Shown here: positions 5,857 to 21,589 of the stretch, one piece after another
Numbering within the stretch: position 1 is the stretch's first letter
Layout of the letters: every line of letters begins with the position of its first letter
IMG/VR virus record: IMGVR_UViG_3300030108_003561
Span: 1 to 32,080 of that record
Source: a virus
Reading direction: 5' to 3' (one strand)
DNA length: 32,080 nt
Program-made: the position numbers and the translations under genes
Notes under the pieces: generated by a model
Told to the model about the DNA's origin: nothing
Databases searched by the model: none
Seen by the model: the letters and a program-made list of their open reading frames with translations, nothing else

Positions 5857-7059
5857 TTACCACCTGATTGTTTTGCTTATCTTACTTATTACAGGAAACT
5901 TGTAGCTGATAGCATATGAACAAGCATCCAAAGCGTGAGTAAGCTCTATGTTAGATTTATTAATTCCTCCTTTTTTATCCCGTTGCACTTGCTCCAAATC
6001 TTTGATTAAAAATTTACATTTAGGGTCAATGGTCATTGATACATTTCCTTCTGCATCTAATAGTTTTCTATTTAATGCATTTAATCTATCAATGTGACTA
6101 GGATGTGATTTTTTTGCTCTAATTTGAAATCCGAAATCTTTTAATATAGCATGGTCGCTTTTATTACTGGTTGTGCTTCTTGCACTTCCCGCTGGGTCAG
6201 GATAGACCTCAATATTAGGAGCAATGGCTTTCATCTTTCTTGCCATCTCCTCAGTATTACTATTCTTTAATCTTATCTCATCAAAATAATGAATAGTTCC
6301 GTTTGTGAATTGGCAAGCTAATACTGCGGTCATATAGTCAACATTATGGTCGCACCCCCACCATAAATAATTAGATAATGAGCTTGCTTGCTTTACATGA
6401 ATATTTCTGTCAAAATTCCAGGCTGCTCGATTGCCTGAAGTTTCAAATGATGCTTCAAACTCTTGCCTGAATCTCACTCCATCCATTGTTCTTTTTGCCC
6501 TTGATATTTCATCAGCAGAAACAAATCCACCATCTATTGTTTTAAATTGCCATGATTTCCAATCAGGTTCCGATTGGCCTCTTGAATATAGATCATACAT
6601 TATATCATAACCATTAGGTGTTCCAATAAAAAGAACAGAACCTTTTGTGGTTGCCAACATAGGATAAACAATCTCTTCCCAAACATGAGGTTTAATATAA
6701 GCCATCTCATCCATAACGCACTTTGTAAGCTCAACTCCCCGCAATGAATTTTCATTATCAGCACCTTTGACAGATAGCTCAGCACCATTATCAAAATATA
6801 CTGACATTTCAGTTTCATTAAGTTTTGCTCCAGCAAATTGGCCAAACATTTGTCTTAATATAGGAAACACAATCATTTTACCTTGCTTATAGCTGGGCGT
6901 TATAAACCAGCGTCTTTCGTTTGCTTGGAAATCGTCTTTCATTAAATACATAAGCGAAAGAATAGTTTTCCCCCATCTTCTCCCAGCCACAATTACCTTG
7001 AACCTTGATTGGTCTTTGAGAATTGCACTTCGTGTTTGATTTAATGTCCAATTCAGCAT
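5857..7059 (-). CDS. terL: Terminase large subunit
   Basis: Walker A is VIVAGRRWGKT and Walker B is CVMDEMAY. The C-terminal half is nuclease-like (CDHNVDY...DPAGSARS). The track start at 7062 is GTG. The next codon, ATG 7059, overlaps the upstream stop (TGATG) and is the likelier start. Confidence 0.9.
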   Translation of the reverse strand: MLNWTLNQTRSAILKDQSRFKVIVAGRRWGKTILSLMYLMKDDFQANERRWFITPSYKQGKMIVFPILRQMFGQFAGAKLNETEMSVYFDNGAELSVKGADNENSLRGVELTKCVMDEMAYIKPHVWEEIVYPMLATTKGSVLFIGTPNGYDIMYDLYSRGQSEPDWKSWQFKTIDGGFVSADEISRAKRTMDGVRFRQEFEASFETSGNRAAWNFDRNIHVKQASSLSNYLWWGCDHNVDYMTAVLACQFTNGTIHYFDEIRLKNSNTEEMARKMKAIAPNIEVYPDPAGSARSTTSNKSDHAILKDFGFQIRAKKSHPSHIDRLNALNRKLLDAEGNVSMTIDPKCKFLIKDLEQVQRDKKGGINKSNIELTHALDACSYAISYKFPVISKISKTIRW

Positions 7060-7259
7060 CACCCAAATATTCTTTTAAATAATGCTTTTGGAACTTTCTT
7101 TCCAGCTTTATAAAGCTTCTGCATTCTTGCAATGTCTCTTCCTCTTTGACTTCTAGCAGAGCCTTTTGTTCCGCTTAGATATTTCTTTGGTACTGATTTA
7201 TAGGTCTTATCTTTTGCAACTCTTCTATTCATCTTTTTCTTTTTAGCTTTTCTAGGCAT
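7059..7259 (-). CDS. Tiny lysine/arginine-rich protein of unknown function
   Basis: 66 aa (MPRKAKKKKMNRRVAKDK...), overlapping the terL start. No recognisable motif. Confidence 0.6.
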   Translation of the reverse strand: MPRKAKKKKMNRRVAKDKTYKSVPKKYLSGTKGSARSQRGRDIARMQKLYKAGKKVPKALFKRIFG

Positions 7260-7517: not shown

Positions 7518-7940
7518 TTATTCATCCTCCAAAACCATTACCCTTATAGGGTCATTTTTGTTTTCAACTACTCTAAATTCTTTTGCTTTTCCTTCTGTTC
7601 TATCTGCAATAAATTGAACCGCCCAGGGCTTTCCCTGAATTGCATAAATCATTGTTGTTCTCATCACGCCTTCCATTAAAGTCATTTCTCCAGCATCAAC
7701 ATCGTCAAAAATTTCATTTACCTTTGACCTGATTTCTTTCGGAATAGTTTCTTCTCCGATTCTTTTAAGCATATCAGGTATTGACATACTGCCTTTTGGC
7801 CTTCCATTTGGATTTCCTGAGACTCCAGCTTTAAATGTGCCATCTTTATTCCTGTTATTTCCTGTTTTTTCAGGCATAATTTTTGAGCGAGTCGGTAGGG
7901 TTCGAACCTCCTCCACTATCTTGGAATAGATAGTATGCAT
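7518..7940 (-). CDS. Terminase small subunit-like protein (putative)
   Basis: 140 aa upstream of terL. The N-terminal GVSGNPNGRPKGS motif is typical of a class of small-terminase / DUF5681-type proteins. Confidence 0.5.
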   Translation of the reverse strand: MHTIYSKIVEEVRTLPTRSKIMPEKTGNNRNKDGTFKAGVSGNPNGRPKGSMSIPDMLKRIGEETIPKEIRSKVNEIFDDVDAGEMTLMEGVMRTTMIYAIQGKPWAVQFIADRTEGKAKEFRVVENKNDPIRVMVLEDE

Positions 7941-7945
7941 ACCAA

Positions 7946-8656
7946 TTACACCAGACTCGCAATCCTTTTTCCTTTATACATTGAAGCTCCCATTTCTTTT
8001 ATTTTATAAAATGGAATAGGCTCCACAGTTAAATCTTTTATTTTATTTTTGTCTATAAAATATACATATCTTAATTGATAACCTTCAATCGGTTTCCATC
8101 CAGCTTCTTTAAACATCTTCATACTTGAACCGCCTTTATAATTTTCTAATAAATCATCTTTTTTTACATTTGATTTTAAATTCAATCTTAATGATATATC
8201 TGTTTTTACTTTACCTTCAGGCGACTTCCAAATTGTATTATTCTTTTTAATATTTGTTAATATAAATCCGCTTGCTCTATAGATTGTTCCGTCACCGCAT
8301 TGCGTTCCATCAGCAAAAGACAAAATCCATTTAATATGAGGAGCGTTCTTTTTTATTAATTTCATTGCAATCGATAGTGATCTACTTTCTGAATTTTTAG
8401 GCAAATGATTATCAAACGCCATTCTATTTAATTCAAGCATTTCATTCCAGCCAGTATTTTTTACTAATCCTATTGTGCGTCTTTTATCAAGCGGACTTCC
8501 AAAGCTTAAAACTCCATGCAAGGATTTATTTAAAAAGGCTCCAAAATGCAATCTGCTATTGGATACAACTGAACCTGAATAATGATGTTTTTTTACAAAT
8601 GCGTTTGCAACATTGCTTGGAATTACTTTTAACCTTATGTCTTTTACTTTACTCAT
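7946..8656 (-). CDS. Mom-like GNAT-fold protein (putative DNA base-modifying acyl/carbamoyl transferase)
   Basis: The ordered motifs FVKKHHYSG, LELNRMAF, LPKNSESRSL and SFADGTQCGDGTIYRASGF match the pattern I associate with the Mom (phage Mu) adenine-modification family. The ORF is open to ATG 8722, but that start would overlap the ParB-like gene by 74 nt. ATG 8656 overlaps the ParB-like stop as ATGAGTAA. Confidence 0.5.
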   Translation of the reverse strand: MSKVKDIRLKVIPSNVANAFVKKHHYSGSVVSNSRLHFGAFLNKSLHGVLSFGSPLDKRRTIGLVKNTGWNEMLELNRMAFDNHLPKNSESRSLSIAMKLIKKNAPHIKWILSFADGTQCGDGTIYRASGFILTNIKKNNTIWKSPEGKVKTDISLRLNLKSNVKKDDLLENYKGGSSMKMFKEAGWKPIEGYQLRYVYFIDKNKIKDLTVEPIPFYKIKEMGASMYKGKRIASLV

Positions 8657-9245
8657 AGCTTTGACATATCCACCATAATGCATTCCCATTATTGTTTTTG
8701 TTTCCTGTTTCACCAAAATCATTTTTTTTGGCCAGCTTAATTTTTTCTTTTATTATTTCTGCTTGTTCATCACTGACAGTAAAAGTCATTTGCTGATATG
8801 GGGATTTATCTCCATCAGGCAAACTAAACTCTTCAGAATAATCTTTATCAAAAGAAAACAATTCTTCATCTTTGAATCCCCATTCAAATAATTCATCAAT
8901 ATCAAAAAAATTTGCCAGGCTATCAAAGTCCCAAGAACCTACATTTTTATTAAGCCTTACATTTAGCTCACGCTCTTTTTCAAAACTTAAATTAACTTCA
9001 ACGCATGGAACAGATTTAAAGCCTAGCTTTTTTGCAATTCTTAATCTTTGATGCCCACCTACCAAGATATTTTTTCTATCTTGATTTATATTTATTATAA
9101 GCGGGTCAACTAATCCAAATTTATAAATGCTATCTTTTAAATATTTATATTGATTCTTTGTAAGCTGTCTTGGATTATAGTCAGCCATATGAATTTCATC
9201 AATATTAACCTGTTTTATTTTTAAAGATTTATTTTTTTCTACCAA
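8649..9245 (-). CDS. ParB/Srx N-terminal domain protein (ParB-like nuclease/NTPase domain)
   Basis: IDEIHMADYNPRQL, FGLVDPLIIN and ILVGGHQRLRIAKKLGF are the classic ParBc motifs. The only in-frame start at the 5' end is TTG 9245. Confidence 0.8.
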   Translation of the reverse strand: MVEKNKSLKIKQVNIDEIHMADYNPRQLTKNQYKYLKDSIYKFGLVDPLIININQDRKNILVGGHQRLRIAKKLGFKSVPCVEVNLSFEKERELNVRLNKNVGSWDFDSLANFFDIDELFEWGFKDEELFSFDKDYSEEFSLPDGDKSPYQQMTFTVSDEQAEIIKEKIKLAKKNDFGETGNKNNNGNALWWICQSYE

Positions 9246-9342
9246 ATCTGCTTTTTTTTGGCTTCATTGATTTGGCTTTTTTTCCGTTTTTCTTTTTTGG
9301 GCGACCCCTTTTAGAGCCGTAAGTTCCTTTTCCAAATGGCAT
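9229..9342 (-). CDS. Possible 37-aa extremely basic peptide (not in ORF track)
   Basis: Hand translation gives MPFGKGTYGSKRGRPKKKNGKKAKSMKPKKSRFGRKK. AGAGG lies 6 nt upstream of the ATG. The ORF overlaps the TTG start of the ParB-like gene. Confidence 0.35.
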   Translation of the reverse strand: MPFGKGTYGSKRGRPKKKNGKKAKSMKPKKSRFGRKK

Positions 9343-9410
9343 TTTTGACCTCTTTTTTATTAAGGTCTAATTTATAAACGCTTTTTAAACTATTAAAAGC
9401 AATAATTTTA

Positions 9411-9629
9411 TTATGCTATTTTTAAAATCTCAACAACTTCAGGCTCTCTATCTTTATATTGATTAAGCCTAGATTTAATATCTTTCATTAAATCTTTTTT
9501 ACTGCTGCCAACTGCATTTACATACATAAATCCGTTTTCTGTCTCAACTTTTATTTCAGCGTGCCATTTATAAGAATGATTTACTTTAGGTATTTCCGAT
9601 TGTTTTTGTTTTTTCATATATCCTTCCAT
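9411..9629 (-). CDS. Hypothetical protein
   Basis: 72-aa ORF on the coding strand. No recognisable motif. Confidence 0.6.
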   Translation of the reverse strand: MEGYMKKQKQSEIPKVNHSYKWHAEIKVETENGFMYVNAVGSSKKDLMKDIKSRLNQYKDREPEVVEILKIA

Positions 9630-9840
9630 TTATTTCTGCTATTGCATTTATTAATTCCCAAGTGCAAAACTCTTGATTTCCTGTTTTCTTCATTAAATCA
9701 CAAAATTCTTCATAAGAAATTATTGTAACAATTCCAAAATCATCTAAATCATTTTCCATACTCACGCCCTGGAAATTTTTTACAGCAATCATTGCAAAGC
9801 CAGCGACCTTCTTCTTTATTAGCAATAGTAACCCAGCCAT
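9586..9840 (-). CDS. Hypothetical protein (start uncertain; internal ATG at 9759 possible)
   Basis: 84-aa ORF with no clear RBS at 9840. Confidence 0.5.
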   Translation of the reverse strand: MAGLLLLIKKKVAGFAMIAVKNFQGVSMENDLDDFGIVTIISYEEFCDLMKKTGNQEFCTWELINAIAEINGRIYEKTKTIGNT

Positions 9841-9881
9841 AGCATTGCTCGCATTGAATTTTATTATTTTTAATTATGGGC

Positions 9882-11033
9882 CTATCTATCATTAAATAAT
9901 TTTTTCTTGATCTGTGTTGCTATGATTCTAACAATAGAAACAGTGACTGCGTTTCCAGCTTGCCTGTATCTTTGCCTATCTGATATTTCAATAATTTCAT
10001 TATCTAATATACCAAATTTATTCCAATTGTCCGAAAATCCTTGCAATCTATTGCATTCTACTGGAGTTAATCTTCTTATTCCAGTTTTAGAAATAGTAAC
10101 TTGATGATTAATTGTTTCTAATGTTTGAGATTTTTGCTTTCCTACTCTTCCTCTTCTTGTTTTAGATGTGGGCCGTTCTAAATTTATTGTATCACCTAAT
10201 CCAGCCTCAGCAAAACCTTTAGAATTTGGTTCAGATATTTTATACAATCCTGTTTTTGCTCCAAGACCTCCGCCCTCACTGTTTAAAGTTGATGATAATC
10301 CTTCAGGGTCATAAACTCTTCCCCAAATTGAATTATGGCCTTTTGTATCTATATTATCAATTTTTTTTAATTTAGCCTCAATCATTGTTCTTTTTCCGTC
10401 TGCTCCTTTATGGTAATTACTGTCGAGTCCTTTGACCAGCCTGTTTTTTTGTTTAAATCCATCTTGTCTAATGCTTCCATTGATTTTTCTGATAGGAAAT
10501 ATTTTTGCTCTACCTCTTCTTCCAAAATATCCAACAATATAAATCCGCTCTCTATGCTGAGGGAGTACGATGCTAGAATTAAAAACTTGGCACTCAATGG
10601 TATAACCAAGCTCGGCAAGTGAATTAAAGATGATAGCAAACGTTCGTCCATCATCGTGACTAAGTAAGCCTTTAACATTTTCGAGTAAAAAACAGGGGAT
10701 TGGCTTTTGATTTCTGATGAAATATCGCAGAATCCGTATAATTTCAAAAAATAAGGTACCTCTGCTGTCATAAAATCCTTTTCTTTTTCCGCTTTGTGAA
10801 AAGCTTTGACAGGGAAATCCCGCTGTAAGGATGTCAATGAAAGCTGGCAAATCTCTTTTTGGCTGAATAGATTTAATGTCTCCAAGATTTATTGCATCCT
10901 TGTAATTATATTTATAAACAGCATTTGCATATTTATCAACATCGCTATACCCAACCCAATCAAATTTAAAGCCAGCTTTTTCAAACCCTTTATGAAATCC
11001 TCCAACGCCACTAAATAAATCCAATAGTTTCAT
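9882..11033 (-). CDS. DNA (cytosine-5)-methyltransferase
   Basis: All conserved C5-MTase motifs are present in order: I LFSGVGGF, IV GFPCQSFSQSG, VI ENVKGL, VIII QHRERIYIVG, IX RRLTPVECNRLQGF and X YRQAGNAVTV. No adjacent restriction endonuclease was recognised, so it appears to be an orphan methylase. Confidence 0.95.
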   Translation of the reverse strand: MKLLDLFSGVGGFHKGFEKAGFKFDWVGYSDVDKYANAVYKYNYKDAINLGDIKSIQPKRDLPAFIDILTAGFPCQSFSQSGKRKGFYDSRGTLFFEIIRILRYFIRNQKPIPCFLLENVKGLLSHDDGRTFAIIFNSLAELGYTIECQVFNSSIVLPQHRERIYIVGYFGRRGRAKIFPIRKINGSIRQDGFKQKNRLVKGLDSNYHKGADGKRTMIEAKLKKIDNIDTKGHNSIWGRVYDPEGLSSTLNSEGGGLGAKTGLYKISEPNSKGFAEAGLGDTINLERPTSKTRRGRVGKQKSQTLETINHQVTISKTGIRRLTPVECNRLQGFSDNWNKFGILDNEIIEISDRQRYRQAGNAVTVSIVRIIATQIKKKLFNDR

Positions 11034-15990: not shown

Positions 15991-16980
15991 CTAAAATTCC
16001 TCAACAAATGACAAATCTGTTGACCATTGCCTGTGAGCAACTTGATTAAATGATATTGTATTATCTAATCGACACCATAGAAATCCGTCGTCAATATCCG
16101 CATTATCTTTGTCATATTGCAATATTAAAGGAAACATTCCGCCATTTGTAAGCCAAACTATCTTATTCAATATAGAATCATCAGTTTGTTGGCTTGGAGT
16201 TCTATATAAATCTGATATATAAACATCGGAATCATCAAGAAAACTAAATGAAATATCTAGTTTTATTCTTCCGCTTTTTACTGGCTGCTGAGTATGAATT
16301 GAAAAGGGCCTTGCAACATTCCAGTCTGAATTTGATAGATGCGTCGCATGAGCATATTTTTGACCGCCTAAGCTTTCATTTATTTTTAATCCATTAAATA
16401 AAATTGTTTTTTTAATATCTAAATCAGGAGAGCGTGGGAAATCGTAGGTGGTCCCCCATAAAATACAACCGATTTTAATATCTTCATCATAATTACCAGT
16501 TACTGCATCAATTACCAGTTTTTGATATCTATTATCTGTGCTTTGGCTAAATGTGATTAATGACCAGCCATCATTTGCTGGCACAGCATAATTTGAACTT
16601 ATTGCTCCATTACATACATTTGTCATTGTTGGAGTTTTTGGAGAGCCAAAATCTGATGCATCATCAGTCATTATTTTAAATTTAGCATCTGCTGTTTTAA
16701 AATTATGGCCCAAAATAGCCACAAACAGTGGTTCATTTAACAGAAATCCATCATCATCAAGGTTTGTATCAATAATTATATTTTGCGTAGTATTTCCGCC
16801 ATTTCCGCCAATTGTTATTGTATTGTTTGGTTTATTGTCAAATAATTGAATTATTGATGATGCCGTTGATAATATTCCGCTACCAGTAATTTGGTCAGTG
16901 CCTGGAATAATTCCTTTTTCTAATAAAGGTTGAATTATGTCAATATATGCTCTTGGTGTTTTAAATCTTTGATAAGCCAT
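15991..16980 (-). CDS. Tail tip/baseplate-associated protein (putative)
   Basis: 329 aa, the last gene of the tail operon, with a single-base overlap to the 991-aa tail protein. The call is by position only. Confidence 0.45.
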   Translation of the reverse strand: MAYQRFKTPRAYIDIIQPLLEKGIIPGTDQITGSGILSTASSIIQLFDNKPNNTITIGGNGGNTTQNIIIDTNLDDDGFLLNEPLFVAILGHNFKTADAKFKIMTDDASDFGSPKTPTMTNVCNGAISSNYAVPANDGWSLITFSQSTDNRYQKLVIDAVTGNYDEDIKIGCILWGTTYDFPRSPDLDIKKTILFNGLKINESLGGQKYAHATHLSNSDWNVARPFSIHTQQPVKSGRIKLDISFSFLDDSDVYISDLYRTPSQQTDDSILNKIVWLTNGGMFPLILQYDKDNADIDDGFLWCRLDNTISFNQVAHRQWSTDLSFVEEF

Positions 16981-19955
16981 TATCCTACTTCCCTTGCTAT
17001 AATTTTTATTTGACCCATAGACCTAGTTATTGAAACAATCATGTAATAATTATTCCAATCACTTCCAAATGGCTCTACCACCATATCGTCAAATTTAACG
17101 ATGTCCCCAACTTCTAATAAATAAGCTTTTTGGATATTTACAATATCGCATTCTATTATTTTTTTTATGTCTCCATTTATTTGGCTATAATAAGAAAAGA
17201 AATCATCTTGTTTATCTGTAGCTATTGAAGTGGCTGGAGCTGGAAACAATGCATCTAAATTAATTGTTGGAATATTTTCAGCACTTTTAATATTATATTT
17301 TTTTCTAGGCTCGGCATTTATTGAAGTTGTTTCATTTATATAAGTTCCTCTTGCTGGATGTTTAAATGTATTGATCTTCGCTTTTGTTAAAATATCTTTT
17401 ATTGAGGTGGTGCTGATATTTATTGAAGAAATATCCTGTTTTTTTAATGTTGCGTTTACATCTTCGGCCCTAAAAGCATTATTTGTGCCAGTTCCATGAA
17501 CCCAAACATATTTACTTTTTCCGCTGCTTGGGCTTATATAATGAATAAATCCGAATTCATATTGAAGTTTTTCAAGCAAATCAAATAATGCAATTTCCTC
17601 ATTTAGCCAATATTTAATAAACCACGCAGTTCTGTCACTATCTAAATCAGACCAATTAATAGGCTCAATTGTAGGCATTCCAGCAAATCTGATTAATAAA
17701 TCTCTATGAGCATCATGACCCTCATCAATTAAATCATCGTCCCAGCTTGCATTAAATCCATCTGCACCACTATATAATTTTTCAACATCTTTAATTCTGC
17801 TCATTCCTTCAGCAGTAGAATTAAAATTTCTTACTCTTAAAGTCGTTTTAAATCTTACATCATATACTTTTAATGTTCCTTTTAATGTAATTAATGTTCC
17901 TCCTGATGCGTCGCCAGGCCTTGTTGCACTTCTTTTAAATCTAAGCCAAAATCCGTCTTCATATTGGCCTGAACTATTTGCATATAATTCTAAATGAGGC
18001 AATAAATCATGCGTTACAGTTTGCTCAGATACATTTGATTCTGTAGATGAGCTAACAGCAGTTACAACATTGTGATTAAATATTTCGGCTCCATCAGAAA
18101 TTGAATCAGATGATGTTGGATTTGAGCTTCCCCCGTATCTGCTATTATCAAGAATAGTAAATGAATTTGTTGCGTGGTTGCCACTATAATTTCTTGTTGC
18201 GTAAAAATCATCAACAAGGAATCGAATTTGCAATTCTAAACCATTTTTTTGACTTGATGAAAAGCTATCAAATTGGTCATCAAATGCGGGAATATCATAT
18301 TGAGCATCAATTCTAAAATCCGCAGGTGAATCTTCTGATTTTGTAAAATCTGCAAGTGCAAATGTTGAAGGAGTGCTAGTGCTAGATTCATCTGTTATTC
18401 CGTCAAAAGCATTAAAAATTTGATTAGTATTATCCCAAGCACTTGACCTTATTGGAACATCTATAGCTTTAAATTTAAAATGTCTTTTTAAATCCCATTT
18501 TGTTTTAACAATATATCCGTCCCCATAAGATTCTGCATCATTCAAATCTGCAAGTGGCAAAAAAGCGTCAATTGATTCTTCATAGTAGTGCAATGTTGTA
18601 TCTGTTGAGCCTATATCTTTATGGAATAAACATTTATAAGAAAATCCCCATGAGTCGACTTGAACTGGCCAAACTTGCCTTTTAAAACCTTCAGCATAAT
18701 TTTCACTTCCAAATGAGCTAGAATTTTTAACAAAATTTCCATATGCAATTGGAAAAAGGCGGCCATTTGGAGATTTTACGCTAGGTACTGTTATATTATC
18801 CCACGGTGATTTACTCACAATTGATATTTTAATGCTATTATCATCATGCGAAATATTTGTTAATCTGCCATGATATAACTGCAAGCAATCATCAATATTA
18901 TTTACCGAGTTTAATTGAGAAAATATTCTTATTGTTCTGTTAAAATAATTATTAGAACCTAAAAAAATCTCTTTTGATAAATCAGAGCCTTGATATTTTG
19001 CGTTAATTATTTTTAAAGAAATATTACTTGTTTTAGCTCTTGATTTGAGTAGATCAACAGAATGTCTTATTGATGCAGATGATTTTATAACTCCATGATA
19101 AAAGATTTCATCAATTGTTTCATCTCTATAAGACAAAGGTAAAAATCCAGCATATTTTGCTCCATTTATTGTTCCTGTTGATATATTTCCAGTTAAATCT
19201 TGAGCAAAATTTTCTCCGTTATTCAATTCCCAGTAAGCTTTTAGATTAGACGATTGATTGTAATTTCCTGAATCTTCTTCGACTGATAAAAAATCTCCGC
19301 TGTTATAAATTGCTGTTCTATTATTAGCATCTAATATTGCCCCCCAAATTGCAAAATATTTAATATAAAATTTTCCCCCATAGTTAGTAGCTGTAAAATC
19401 TTCTCTAGCAATATAAGCTTTTCCGTCGCTTACATAAGTTGGAGTTGTAACTGTTGCATTGCCATCATCAGAAATAGTTTCAGCTACATTGTTTATATAA
19501 ATATTTGTTCCTGATGTTGCTGTGGCAAAAGTGCTTGTAATTATTACATGATACCAAGTATTTGCTGATAATGCAGTGCTACCTATCATTGTTTTTCTAT
19601 CATGCTGAGTTGCACCTGAATCATCTCCCCAATTCAAAGCAATTTTATCCTCAGGATTTTTTTCAATCCAATAGCCTGAGTAAGTTGCCGTTGAATTAGA
19701 TGCAAATATAATTTCTCTATTTCCAATATCAGGAAAATTAATCCAAAAGGCAGCCGTTAATCCAGTTCCCCCTGATTCGCTAGTGCCTTTTACATTTATG
19801 CTAGATGATGCCGTTGTTGTTCCAAAATCAATATAATCATCTGTTCCATCAAATATTAAATATGAATCTTGATTAAAAAACTGAAAAAGCCAATTTTCTT
19901 TTACATTTCCTAGATAAGAAGCCCCGCTATAATTTGCAGATTGGTTTAAGCTCAT
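16980..19955 (-). CDS. Large tail protein with an N-terminal LamG/ConA-like lectin-fold domain
   Basis: 991 aa immediately after the tape measure. The N-terminal pattern LIFDGTDDYIDFG...TAAFWINFPD...IIFAS...WYHVIITS...IYINN is typical of Laminin_G_3-type domains. Confidence 0.6.
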   Translation of the reverse strand: MSLNQSANYSGASYLGNVKENWLFQFFNQDSYLIFDGTDDYIDFGTTTASSSINVKGTSESGGTGLTAAFWINFPDIGNREIIFASNSTATYSGYWIEKNPEDKIALNWGDDSGATQHDRKTMIGSTALSANTWYHVIITSTFATATSGTNIYINNVAETISDDGNATVTTPTYVSDGKAYIAREDFTATNYGGKFYIKYFAIWGAILDANNRTAIYNSGDFLSVEEDSGNYNQSSNLKAYWELNNGENFAQDLTGNISTGTINGAKYAGFLPLSYRDETIDEIFYHGVIKSSASIRHSVDLLKSRAKTSNISLKIINAKYQGSDLSKEIFLGSNNYFNRTIRIFSQLNSVNNIDDCLQLYHGRLTNISHDDNSIKISIVSKSPWDNITVPSVKSPNGRLFPIAYGNFVKNSSSFGSENYAEGFKRQVWPVQVDSWGFSYKCLFHKDIGSTDTTLHYYEESIDAFLPLADLNDAESYGDGYIVKTKWDLKRHFKFKAIDVPIRSSAWDNTNQIFNAFDGITDESSTSTPSTFALADFTKSEDSPADFRIDAQYDIPAFDDQFDSFSSSQKNGLELQIRFLVDDFYATRNYSGNHATNSFTILDNSRYGGSSNPTSSDSISDGAEIFNHNVVTAVSSSTESNVSEQTVTHDLLPHLELYANSSGQYEDGFWLRFKRSATRPGDASGGTLITLKGTLKVYDVRFKTTLRVRNFNSTAEGMSRIKDVEKLYSGADGFNASWDDDLIDEGHDAHRDLLIRFAGMPTIEPINWSDLDSDRTAWFIKYWLNEEIALFDLLEKLQYEFGFIHYISPSSGKSKYVWVHGTGTNNAFRAEDVNATLKKQDISSINISTTSIKDILTKAKINTFKHPARGTYINETTSINAEPRKKYNIKSAENIPTINLDALFPAPATSIATDKQDDFFSYYSQINGDIKKIIECDIVNIQKAYLLEVGDIVKFDDMVVEPFGSDWNNYYMIVSITRSMGQIKIIAREVG

Positions 19956-21589
19956 GCAAGCGTCCTTGCTTTTTCTATCTCAGGAACAAGAATATCTCTA
20001 ACAAAAGATTCTTCTCCAATTAGATTTCCTTGAATATTAACATTAACGCTTCCCATATTTCCGACTAGGTTTTCTTGCTGGGCTTTATTTAAAATTAATT
20101 CGCCAGGCGTAAGCATTGCTGGAACAGTATCTTGATTCCCAACTCCACCAACAATTCCTCCTTCAGCAAATGCTGGTACATATTTATCAAATAATGAGCT
20201 AATTGCAACGGCTACAGCGGTTCCAGTTACCACTCCAGCAAGGCCTTTTGTAGTTACTTCTTTTGCTATGGCTCCAGCTATTGCTTGAGAAAGCCTTCCT
20301 TTTATTTCATTTCTTATTCCTGAAAGAGTGGTTTGAAAGGTCATATTTTCTAAATCAAAACCTTTTTTCTTTTCTGCATTAACTAAACCTAATGCTCTTG
20401 CTTGCTCAGGATATAATTCAATGAATTTTTTAATATTTTCTTCTTCCGCTCTTAATAGATCAAGTTTATTTAATTGGTCTAATTTAAAAGTTTTAAAGCT
20501 CATTTTTTCTTGCAATGCATCTTTTTCCTTAAATTTTCTTAATGTATTAACTGCCATTTTTAAATCAAGATATTTAATAACTTGGTCTCCAAGAATCCCT
20601 CTTAATTCAGACCCTTTTTCAATACCTAGCTTAAATAATTCCATTTGAAGGTCAGAAGCTCCTTCTAGTTCCATCTTTTGCAATTCTAATGCTTTGATTT
20701 GGTCTTCATAGGTATTCACCACTTTTTCATTTGCAGTATTTAAAAGCTTTTGATTTTCTTCTTGAAATTTTATTTGCTCTGCTACAGATTTTGCATTCTC
20801 AGCTAAAATTGCTTGAGAATCAGAAAACTCCATTGTTGAATCCGATGCCTCTTCTTGCCCAACAATTAAATCAGCAAGTTTTTTTGCTCCGTCAACTAAA
20901 GCATTTGATAAAAAAGAAACTGCATTCGCTGTATGAATAACTGCTGGGCCTAATAATTCTCCCAAAGCTTCCCCAGCATCAAAAACTGCATTCTTTGTTT
21001 GCTCTAATTTACCAGCCAAAGAATCAGCATTGGCAACTGCTTGACCGCCCATCAGCTCAGATATAACTTTTAATGCTCCACCAGCTTGAAGCTCTTCTTT
21101 TGTTAGCTCTTTTAACTGAGGTATTAATTCTCCTAACTCACCTTGCAATCCGCTAAATGTTTTTGCAACATTTCTAACTGCTGAATCTAATTCCATTCCT
21201 GTAGCAGATGATAAATCCAAAGCAAGCGGAATTATTTCTTTTATCTGTTCTTGCGTGAAATCAAGGGATGCTAAAAAAGCTTGCTGAGATATAATAACTT
21301 CATCTCCAAAAACAGTTAATCTTTGAAGAGCAGTTGCTTGCTCTAATAAAGCATCAGTATTTGAACCTAAAGCAACGGCCAATCTTTTTTCAGCTAATTC
21401 TTGTTCAGCAGCCAAAATCGTTACTTGCTGGATTCCATTTATTATTCCCCTAGCTGTAAAAAATACTGCTCCAGCTTTTAATGCAGAAGTTCCTAAGCTT
21501 GTAAAAGATTTTTCAACTTTATCAACTTTTGCTTTTGATTCTTTATCACCAACGATTCCAAGCTTGATTAATAATTGTTTAACGGCCAT
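19952..21589 (-). CDS. Tail tape measure protein
   Basis: 545 aa, largely alpha-helical and A/L/E/K-rich, with a TP901-type core look (ALKAGAVFFTARGIINGI...). It has a glycine-rich C-terminus and follows the G/GT chaperone pair. Confidence 0.8.
   Translation of the reverse strand: MAVKQLLIKLGIVGDKESKAKVDKVEKSFTSLGTSALKAGAVFFTARGIINGIQQVTILAAEQELAEKRLAVALGSNTDALLEQATALQRLTVFGDEVIISQQAFLASLDFTQEQIKEIIPLALDLSSATGMELDSAVRNVAKTFSGLQGELGELIPQLKELTKEELQAGGALKVISELMGGQAVANADSLAGKLEQTKNAVFDAGEALGELLGPAVIHTANAVSFLSNALVDGAKKLADLIVGQEEASDSTMEFSDSQAILAENAKSVAEQIKFQEENQKLLNTANEKVVNTYEDQIKALELQKMELEGASDLQMELFKLGIEKGSELRGILGDQVIKYLDLKMAVNTLRKFKEKDALQEKMSFKTFKLDQLNKLDLLRAEEENIKKFIELYPEQARALGLVNAEKKKGFDLENMTFQTTLSGIRNEIKGRLSQAIAGAIAKEVTTKGLAGVVTGTAVAVAISSLFDKYVPAFAEGGIVGGVGNQDTVPAMLTPGELILNKAQQENLVGNMGSVNVNIQGNLIGEESFVRDILVPEIEKARTLA

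Follow-up and report, generated by a model that had tools for sequence, protein, structure and literature searches.

We identified in a marine phage a widespread but apparently undescribed three-part cassette that comprises a ParB-like protein, a Mom-family enzyme predicted to modify adenines in DNA, and a private glycine-tRNA-like RNA that probably supplies the glycine. The cassette lies in a 32,080-nucleotide stretch (IMG/VR record IMGVR_UViG_3300030108_003561, positions 1 to 32,080; hereafter the window), where it sits at the head of the packaging genes. An earlier note, made from the sequence alone, had described a ParB-like gene and a Mom-like gene with overlapping frames beside a C5-methylase and upstream of the terminase genes, and this observation proved correct in all its sequence statements. 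Its interpretation, a two-component system that installs a non-methyl base modification layered on m5C, is only partly supported by our data: the pair is a real, strictly conserved and probably co-translated unit, but the unit has three parts, the C5-methylase is not one of them, and the chemistry is probably the known Mom reaction. In the literature we could search, no paper describes a ParB/Mom pairing.

The ParB-Mom gene pair and its surroundings

The Mom-like gene (7946-8656, minus strand) encodes a 236-aa protein that matches Pfam Mom PF25680 at 174.2 bits (cut-off 27.1) and phrog_1384, 'Mom-like DNA modification protein', at 176 bits. The AF2 model (pLDDT 86) has Mu Mom (PDB 8bv8) as its top Foldseek match in the PDB (E 3.4e-18, TM 0.67-0.77), followed by GNAT acetyltransferases, and a profile comparison with 8bv8 gives E 2.7e-33. 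Six experimentally critical residues of Mu Mom (PMC7261163, PMC13219725), namely H58, Y59, R111, S124, D149 and Y159 in the 241-aa Mu numbering, are conserved as H25, Y26, R78, S91, D116 and Y126, all invariant in the clade. In contrast, the essential Mu residue R151 aligns with T118, the dimer residue W48 aligns with N15, and residues 1-33 of Mu Mom, which include an N-terminal basic tail proposed to contact tRNA (PMC13219725), are absent. The clade also has its own invariant motif, SFADGTQCGDG.

The ParB-like gene (8649-9245, minus strand) has a TTG start and encodes a 198-aa protein with an N-terminal ParB/Srx NTP-binding-type domain (residues ~9-130), a disordered linker (132-147) and a C-terminal, two-helix tail of ~60 aa (PDGD..QQMTFTV..GNxNxNGN). 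It matches ParB_N PF02195 at 40.6 bits (cut-off 26.3) and carries the DYNPR and GGHQR motifs; its AF2 model (pLDDT 78) returns ParB, Noc and KorB N-domains as top Foldseek hits (E 1e-7 to 1e-5), and its profile matches Spo0J/ParB at E 1e-9. At the nucleotide-binding P-motif GxxRxxA, GGHQRLRIA aligns with GERRFRAA of Spo0J: R67, equivalent to B. subtilis R80, is invariant, whereas E78, the glutamate that catalyses CTP hydrolysis in B. subtilis ParB, is replaced by His65 and R79 by Gln66, both also invariant. The protein lacks the central HTH parS-binding domain and the ParA partner of a canonical partition ParB: no HTH family was detected, TIGR00180 scores 31 bits against a cut-off of 58, and no ParA was seen among the window ORFs scanned. 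The tail is specific to Mom-linked ParBs: in a ParB-seeded scan, ParBs carrying the full tail are followed by Mom in 14/14 loci, and the tail is C-terminal in all of the 150 best of 751 hits.

The ParB stop TAA (8651-8649) and the Mom ATG (8656-8654) overlap by 8 nt as ATGAGTAA. Whether the two genes co-occur elsewhere had been set beforehand as a test of the pairing, and the pairing is not chance. A ParB lies upstream of Mom in 81/81 loci of one survey, and a full-length ParB of this subtype lies directly upstream of Mom in 99/99 viral loci and 72/72 bacterial-genome loci, with overlapping reading frames in 142/143 loci. No ParB-Mom fusion protein was found in our searches. Psychrobacter phage vB_PmaS_Y8A carries a second, Mu-like mom. 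As the earlier note had stated of this type of ParB domain, the same N-domain family is fused to N6/N4 methyltransferases (26/26 long relatives); it also precedes TET-associated glycosyltransferase, Tet_JBP, GNAT and methyltransferase genes.

The C5 cytosine DNA methyltransferase (9882-11033, minus strand) is complete, covering the whole PF00145 model (1-324/324, 242.6 bits) and matching TIGR00675 dcm at 277.6 bits, but it is not a conserved part of the module: a homologue lies near Mom in only 3 of 80 related viral loci, one of which is the same phage. Downstream of the cassette, a DUF5681 protein (7518-7877, minus strand; Pfam DUF5681, 46 bits) occupies the position of a small terminase subunit. 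Its probable true start is the ATG at 7877, as the first 21 codons of the 140-aa ORF (7940-7878) are read-through of the tRNA-like gene and the Pfam match starts at residue 33. It is followed by the large terminase subunit (5857-7062, minus strand), which matches phrog_2 at 126 bits as well as Terminase_6N and Terminase_6C. A small, highly basic 37-aa ORF (9229-9342, minus strand), whose end overlaps the ParB start, is uncertain and probably not a conserved component, as comparable basic mini-ORFs lie upstream of ParB in only 6 of 153 loci.

The tRNA-Gly-like element

A third part, missed by the earlier note, is an unannotated tRNA-Gly-like gene (7885-7960, minus strand) that overlaps the last 15 nt of the Mom ORF and fills the gap before the next gene. 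It has a perfect 7-bp acceptor stem (GCGAGUC/GACUCGC), U73, a UUCC-containing but non-canonical anticodon loop, UAUUCCAA, of 8 nt (or 6 nt if the stem is extended to 7 bp), and the T-loop GGUUCGAAC; no CCA is encoded. This copy is one of the more degenerate: ARAGORN calls it 'tRNA-???' with anticodon (tc), Rfam tRNA RF00005 scores 24.1 bits (E 0.0084), below the gathering score of 29, the T-stem has a mismatch, and the minimum-energy fold is not a clean cloverleaf. Our own covariance model scores it at 58.4 bits, although this copy was in the seed. In 6 of 20 related loci tested, the elements pass the Rfam gathering score at 36-54 bits.

Covariance-model hits occur at the same place in 92/99 viral and 51/72 genome ParB-Mom loci, so that 7% of viral and about 29% of genome loci lack a detectable element. 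There are no hits in 63 ParB loci without Mom, nor in the Mu, Polaribacter, Salmonella or Enterococcus Mom loci, even with filters off. Every ARAGORN call in 166 viral loci is tRNA-Gly, or an xCC-type call of uncertain identity, and sits at the Mom 3' end; the elements lie at a median distance of 3 nt from Mom, and Salinibacter phage B2_17 has ParB-Mom followed by an annotated tRNA-Gly. In related loci, TerS/TerL follow the element. About 20% of elements lie on the opposite strand and would need their own promoter.

The cloverleaf is supported by massive covariation. In a MAFFT alignment, 17 of 20 pairs show compensatory changes; in the model-fitted alignment, 99.1% of cells are paired, 440 show double-sided changes, and the covariation score is 0.866, against 0.21 when shuffled and at most 0.17 when slid, with 0/500 shuffles reaching the observed values. 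The identity set of bacterial glycyl-tRNA synthetase (GlyRS) comprises G1:C72, C2:G71, G3:C70, U73, C35 and C36, all of which are present in the window copy. Among 65 distinct sequences, G1:C72 and C2:G71 occur in 65/65, G3:C70 in 56/65, U73 in 64/65, and CC at positions 35-36 and CCA at positions 35-37 in about 60/65. Only about 19/65 have a canonical 7-nt loop with U33 (anticodon UCC or ACC), while about 70% have 8-nt loops or a non-U at position 33 and still keep C35, C36, U73 and the first three acceptor pairs; a CCA end is encoded in about 13/65.

A proposed tRNA-dependent module and its alternatives

We propose, with moderate confidence, that the locus is a self-contained, ParB-assisted, tRNA-dependent adenine hypermodification module, expressed just ahead of the packaging genes. 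In this view, the Mom-like enzyme works like phage Mu Mom, which was shown in 2026 to transfer glycine from Gly-tRNAGly to adenine, followed by rearrangement to N6-carbamoylmethyl-dA, and which accepts all three E. coli tRNAGly isoacceptors but not Gly-tRNAAla (PMC13219725). The product in double-stranded phage DNA would be N6-carbamoylmethyl-adenine or a close derivative that blocks restriction. The tRNA-Gly-like RNA would be a private carrier that keeps what host GlyRS, and probably Mom, needs to recognise it, with an anticodon loop that in most copies would be unfit for the ribosome, so its charge would be reserved for DNA modification. The ParB-like protein, probably made by coupled translation, would recruit or activate Mom on duplex DNA through its Mom-specific tail, possibly restricting modification to phage DNA; a phage ParB was shown in 2026 to activate a thymine dioxygenase on dsDNA (PMC13229309).

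Our analysis establishes the gene identities, the fold, the conserved residues, the linkage of the three parts and the RNA covariation, whereas every function remains an inference from sequence and predicted structure, including nucleotide binding by ParB, charging of the RNA, its use by Mom, glycine transfer to DNA, the dependence of Mom on ParB and the chemical product. The missing basic tail and the loss of W48 and R151 are gaps that a partner could fill, but the absence of R151 also means that the chemistry could differ. Moreover, Mu Mom needs no partner, and two randomly chosen metagenomic homologues, whose clade is unknown to us, were active alone in E. coli (PMC13219725), so ParB may be dispensable.

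The alternative that survives best, though we consider it unlikely, is that ParB regulates the cassette, binding DNA to control the transcription or timing of a toxic mom gene as DndB does in the dnd system, while Mom acts alone as in Mu. Mu Mom is indeed a single-enzyme system under tight expression control (PMC13219725), ParB-fold proteins such as DndB act as repressors (PMC12704722), and the C-terminal tail gives a weak, sub-threshold hit (E 0.07) to the family of NikA, a ribbon-helix-helix DNA-binding protein. However, a regulator does not explain why the same ParB N-domain is physically fused to methyltransferases, a close relative activates a dioxygenase at the protein level, the near-universal frame overlap suggests stoichiometric co-production, and the clade has lost Mu residues needed for dimerisation and catalysis.

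Less likely still, the tRNA-like gene may be an ordinary phage tRNA-Gly that serves codon supplementation or replaces host tRNAs attacked by defence nucleases, with an incidental position next to Mom. Phages commonly carry tRNA genes, and the canonical loops and the six elements passing the Rfam threshold fit this reading. Against it, only Gly-type elements occur, always within a few bases of Mom and never in Mom-less ParB loci or ParB-less Mom loci; most loops are non-canonical despite the retained identity positions; Rfam scores (24-54 bits) are low for real tRNAs; and the neighbouring enzyme belongs to a family shown to use Gly-tRNAGly.

The two-component reading of the earlier note, in which a new, non-Mom-type modification is layered deliberately on m5C, is improbable. 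It draws on the replaced R151, the clade-specific motif and the position of the methylase 1.2 kb upstream on the same strand, but the methylase rarely co-occurs, six other catalytic residues and the fold match Mu Mom, and the glycine-tRNA identity of the linked RNA points to the known glycine chemistry. Finally, a DNA-level site, such as a pac site or an attP copy of a host tRNA-Gly gene, is very unlikely, even though temperate phages often integrate into tRNA genes and the element lies just upstream of the packaging genes in either orientation, because it is full length and, in prophages inside large bacterial contigs (three loci), internal between Mom and TerS/TerL, no integrase was found among the 29 large window ORFs, and the T-loop and glycine identity positions are conserved as in a folded RNA alongside anticodon loops that host tRNAs do not have.

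Comparison with known systems

Phage Mu Mom (Silva et al. 2026, PMC13219725) belongs to the same Pfam family, has the same GNAT fold with an insertion, and uses a co-substrate that fits the linked tRNA-Gly-like gene. Sequence identity is only about 31%, however, and the protein described here has an extra C-terminal segment, is always preceded by a ParB and is usually followed by its own tRNA-like gene, whereas Mu has Com, no ParB and no tRNA, and uses host tRNAs. The module also sits before the terminase genes rather than at the genome end.

The ParB-dependent phage thymine dioxygenases (5mYOX176/ParB176; O'Toole et al. 2026, PMC13229309) and the 'ParB-terminase locus' predicted by Iyer et al. 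2013 likewise pair a short ParB, with an NTP-binding-type N-domain and a C-terminal domain but no recognisable HTH, with a post-replicative DNA base-modifying enzyme encoded next to it near the terminase genes. Here, the partner is a predicted GNAT-fold aminoacyl-transferase instead of a dioxygenase, the tail is Mom-specific, an RNA component is added, and dependence on ParB is inferred only. The ParB-N6/N4 methyltransferase fusions of phages (phrog_498; Kaljevic et al. 2025, PMC12704722) share the same ParB N-domain subfamily (45-67% identity over about 130 residues), but their catalytic domain is covalently fused and uses SAM, while the enzyme here is a separate polypeptide.

A further parallel is the non-proteinogenic tRNAGly used with Fem-type aminoacyl-transferases in Staphylococcus cell-wall synthesis, where a glycine tRNA is kept chargeable by GlyRS but diverted from the ribosome to feed a GNAT-fold transferase; Silva et al. 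state the general precedent and cite Villet 2007 on tRNAs in cell-wall synthesis. In the proposed module, the acceptor would be DNA, the tRNA is virus-encoded and physically linked to the enzyme gene, and the deviation is in the anticodon loop. The analogy to the DpdA/DpdB 7-deazaguanine system, drawn in the earlier note, is loose: a ParB-like NTPase partners a DNA base-modifying enzyme there, but no tRNA-guanine-transglycosylase-like DpdA is present here, the chemistry differs, and the locus is not a member of that system.

Genomic Context and the Mom-Like Protein

All genes in the region lie on the minus strand. ORF 7946-8722 matches the Pfam Mom family (PF25680) at 174.2 bits against a cut-off of 27.1, as well as phrog_1384, a "Mom-like DNA modification protein", whereas ORF 8649-9245 matches ParB_N at 40.6 bits (cut-off 26.3) and also PHROGs that are either ParB-like proteins or the N-terminal part of DNA methyltransferases. 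ORF 9882-11033 covers the whole C5-methylase model. The ParB frame ends in TAT GAG TAA, and the ATG of the Mom-like protein (MSKVKD...) lies inside it, giving the ATGAGTAA overlap described in the earlier note. Downstream come a DUF5681 protein, two small ORFs, the large terminase, a portal-sized ORF, and a major head protein. The window is a 32,080-bp Tara Oceans surface-water scaffold (TARA_072_SRF_0.22-3) in which every sizeable gene is on one strand, and near-identical contigs of 31-33 kb suggest a complete small phage genome. The 991-aa and 545-aa ORFs (16980-21589) and several ORFs of 330-360 aa have no PHROG match. What the earlier note observed at this locus is confirmed.

The AlphaFold2 model of the Mom-like protein (pLDDT 86) finds the crystal structure of phage Mu Mom (8bv8) as its best PDB match, at E 3.4e-18 and TM 0.67-0.77, followed by ordinary GNAT acetyltransferases, and a profile of the clade finds 8bv8 at E 2.7e-33. 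In an alignment with Mu Mom, the residues shown to matter in Mu, namely H58, Y59, R111, S124, D149, and Y159 in 241-residue numbering (PMC7261163; PMC13219725), are all present and invariant in the clade. Three features differ: the essential R151 aligns with T118, the dimer residue W48 aligns with N15, and the basic N-terminal 33 residues of Mu Mom, proposed to touch tRNA, are missing. The clade also has its own invariant motif, SFADGTQCGDG. The chemistry assumed in the earlier note, conversion of adenine to N6-methylcarbamoyl-adenine, needs updating, as Mu Mom transfers glycine from Gly-tRNAGly to N6 of adenine in dsDNA, and the adduct then rearranges to N6-carbamoylmethyl-dA (PMC13219725).

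The ParB Partner

We next asked whether the pairing recurs elsewhere, a point the earlier note had set as a test. The Mom-like protein has at least 8000 relatives, counted as clusters, in the protein collection, and relatives are encoded in 418 IMG/VR stretches. In the 80 best viral loci plus the one close cultured relative (Psychrobacter phage vB_PmaS_Y8A, 48.5% identity), a ParB homologue lies immediately upstream of Mom on the same strand in 81 of 81. With profile HMMs, 99 viral loci have ParB upstream of Mom, and the only Mom loci without ParB are distant family members: Mu, the Polaribacter, Salmonella, and Enterococcus phages, and two weak hits. Among the distant homologues, the linkage is present in Salinibacter phage B2_17. 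An independent scan of one genome per prokaryotic species found 129 contigs, from 129 species across many bacterial phyla, and all 72 loci with enough flank have the ParB. The ParB stop overlaps the Mom start by 4-34 nt in 142 of 143 loci, consistent with coupled translation. ParB identity to the window falls to about 30% while that of Mom stays at 55-72%, and the pairing has therefore survived much divergence.

The interpretation offered in the earlier note, a two-component ParB/Mom system layered on m5C, is only partly supported. A C5-methylase homologue is nearby in only 3 of 80 loci, and it is not part of the unit. A very basic 37-aa ORF at 9229-9342 (-) (MPFGKGTYGSKRGRPKKKNGKKAKSMKPKKSRFGRKK), with a good Shine-Dalgarno-like sequence and overlapping the TTG start of ParB by 17 nt, was considered as a fourth, Com-like component and rejected, since similar mini-ORFs occur in only 6 of 153 loci. 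No ParB-Mom fusion protein appears in the best 120 hits for either protein.

The predicted ParB structure (pLDDT 78) has a ParB/Noc/KorB-like N-domain, a disordered linker (132-147), and two C-terminal helices. Its GGHQR motif aligns with the GERRxR motif of Spo0J; the key arginine is kept, but the glutamate and first arginine are replaced by invariant His and Gln. In a search of IMG/VR seeded with ParB, proteins that match our profile over its full length, including the tail PDGD..QQMTFTL..GNxNxNGN, are followed by Mom in 14 of 14 loci, and three with a shorter tail are followed by distant Mom-like genes. ParBs that match only the N-terminal ~130 residues (45-67% identity) are fused to N6_N4 methyltransferases (26 of 26) or stand alone. 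Among the ParB-seeded viral loci (L087-L166 in our locus numbering), the standalone proteins lie upstream of TET-associated glycosyltransferase (8), Tet_JBP (6), GNAT (3), or assorted methyltransferase and ATPase genes, which gives a broad set of ParB-linked DNA-modification cassettes. Some prophages place a ParB::N6_N4-methyltransferase fusion right after the ParB-Mom module (L185, 7189-8595; L190, 6001-7502 and 8434-9738); L190 has two tandem Mom genes and no detectable tRNA-like element.

The tail alone finds 751 cluster representatives, and in the best 150 it is always at the C-terminus of ParB-sized proteins. A ribbon-helix-helix assignment of the tail rests only on a sub-threshold NikA-like hit (E 0.07). 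We infer that one ParB N-domain serves many DNA-modifying enzymes, with the tail as the Mom-specific adaptor, which fits both the "ParB-terminase locus" predicted by Iyer et al. 2013 (as quoted in PMC4738411) and the phage ParB shown to activate a thymine dioxygenase on dsDNA (PMC13229309). None of the papers searched mention ParB together with Mom as a pair, although it cannot be excluded that Iyer et al. 2009 and 2013 list Mom among the enzymes of such loci.

A tRNA-Gly-Like Gene Next to Mom

ARAGORN reports a "tRNA-???" at window 7885-7960 (-), straddling the Mom stop. Across 166 viral loci (1.13 Mb), ARAGORN made 34 calls, every one of which is tRNA-Gly (UCC or ACC) or an xCC-type call of uncertain identity, and every one of which is at the 3' end of Mom. 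Twenty-seven such sequences align as a cloverleaf with compensatory changes in 17 of 20 pairs. A covariance model built from them (R1) finds the element in 89 of 99 ParB-Mom viral loci, and in 92 with filters off, starting a median of 3 nt after the Mom domain, with 72 copies on the same strand and 17 on the opposite strand. There are no hits in the 63 ParB loci without an adjacent Mom, and none in the Mu, Polaribacter, Salmonella, or Enterococcus Mom loci, even with filters off. In the independent genome set, 48 of 72 loci have it, and 51 with filters off. Two tandem copies follow Mom in some Clostridia prophages (L176, 6760/6861; L184, 6810/6911; L219, 6810/6932).

On 65 distinct sequences, 99.1% of pair cells are standard pairs and 440 cells changed on both sides. 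The covariation score is 0.866, against 0.21 in shuffles (0/500 reach the observed value) and at most 0.17 when the partners are slid; that alignment is fitted to the model, but the MAFFT result agrees. G1:C72 and C2:G71 are invariant, G3:C70 occurs in 56/65, U73 in 64/65, and CC(A) at positions 35-37 in about 60/65, which is the bacterial GlyRS identity set. By contrast, only about 19/65 have a normal 7-nt loop with U33, whereas 24 have 8-nt loops and others have A, C, or G at position 33. A scan of the window with Rfam gathering scores found nothing: the general tRNA model scores the window copy at 24.1 bits, below the gathering score of 29, while six of 20 relatives pass at 36-54 bits, and the window element appears only with ARAGORN, a relaxed Rfam scan, or a purpose-built model. 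Selection therefore appears to preserve the acceptor end and charging, the latter inferred from the identity positions, and not decoding. Silva et al. report that features at the tRNA 3' end plus the amino acid suffice for Mom's co-substrate choice, and note a precedent for isoacceptors used outside translation (PMC13219725).

The element is currently mis-annotated. The first 21 codons of ORF 7518-7940 (window 7878-7940, -) are read-through translation of the tRNA-like gene, as are the odd C-terminal tails of many database Mom and ParB ORFs (homologues P0021, P0073, and P0132), for example ...GGSIPT..., which is the T-arm GGTGGTTCGATTCC. In about one fifth of loci (L006-L008, L014, L029, L035, L057, L060, L062, L068-L070, L076, L079-L081, L095, L213, and L224), the gene lies on the strand opposite to Mom, yet at the same position, and in some of these (e.g., L006) the Mom ORF reads through its antisense. 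A sub-group of viral ParB-Mom loci (L017, L020, L023, L024, and L028), with ParB only about 30% identical to that of the window, has no detectable element even with filters off, while in L019 the element lies upstream of ParB (1010-1081) and an extra gene separates ParB from Mom. Other tRNA or tRNA-like genes lie elsewhere in a few loci: a weak tRNA-like hit in L012/L013 (666-729, -), tRNA-Gln just upstream of ParB in L241/L242 (5249-5323), and tRNA-Tyr plus tRNA-Ser in L217 (4301-4539).

Among alternative readings of the element, an ordinary translational tRNA is unlikely, given the exclusive Gly identity, strict linkage, and aberrant loops. A cis role in the mom mRNA is hard to square with the roughly 20% of copies on the opposite strand. 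An attP or integration site is rejected, because in prophages inside large contigs (L178, L195, and L185) the element is internal, lying between Mom and TerS/TerL or other phage genes, and no integrase was found among the 29 large window ORFs.

A Proposed Three-Part Mechanism

In the mechanism we propose, ParB and Mom would be co-translated late in infection, while the adjacent RNA would be processed, given CCA, and charged by host GlyRS. ParB, through its tail, would bring or activate Mom on duplex phage DNA, and Mom would then transfer glycine to adenine N6. Our analysis establishes the identity of the components, their linkage, and the structure of the RNA; that the RNA is charged and used by Mom, that Mom depends on ParB, and what product is formed are inferences. 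We hold the full mechanistic reading with moderate confidence, since Mu Mom works alone, two metagenomic homologues of unknown clade ("Homolog A" and "Homolog B" of Silva et al.) also worked alone, R151 is not conserved, the window's own RNA copy is degenerate, and 7-29% of loci lack a detectable element.

Both halves of this logic, tRNA-dependent Mom and ParB-activated DNA modification, were published in 2026. What appears undescribed is the three-way module, and especially a virus-encoded, apparently non-decoding tRNAGly tied to a DNA-modifying enzyme. Mom chemistry was presented as a single-enzyme reaction that scavenges host tRNA, whereas this very widespread module suggests that most Mom relatives in nature bring their own glycine carrier and a ParB partner. 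It would extend the newly found ParB-activator principle from dioxygenases to a second, unrelated enzyme class, and it makes it possible to test how a virus feeds an aminoacyl-tRNA into DNA modification without draining translation. More tentatively, the commonest natural form of the Mom system may not be the lone enzyme of phage Mu but a three-part machine, in which a ParB-type switch loads or activates the enzyme on phage DNA and a virus-encoded glycine tRNA, retired from translation, serves only as glycine donor for DNA; this would be the first dedicated "DNA-modification tRNA".

Two cultured phages carry the module, which makes it directly testable. Psychrobacter phage vB_PmaS_Y8A (L001, OQ059336; 6521-7944) has the ParB-Mom pair, with Mom annotated as "hypothetical protein" (WBF05279), two weak tandem tRNA-like hits (7786-7851 and 7858-7924) before TerS, and a second, Mu-like Mom (ORF69). 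In Salinibacter phage B2_17 (L083, OR896349; 2496-3697), two proteins annotated as "hypothetical" are ParB_N (48 bits) and Mom (92 bits), followed by an annotated tRNA-Gly whose anticodon loop reads CGUCCAG, with no U33.
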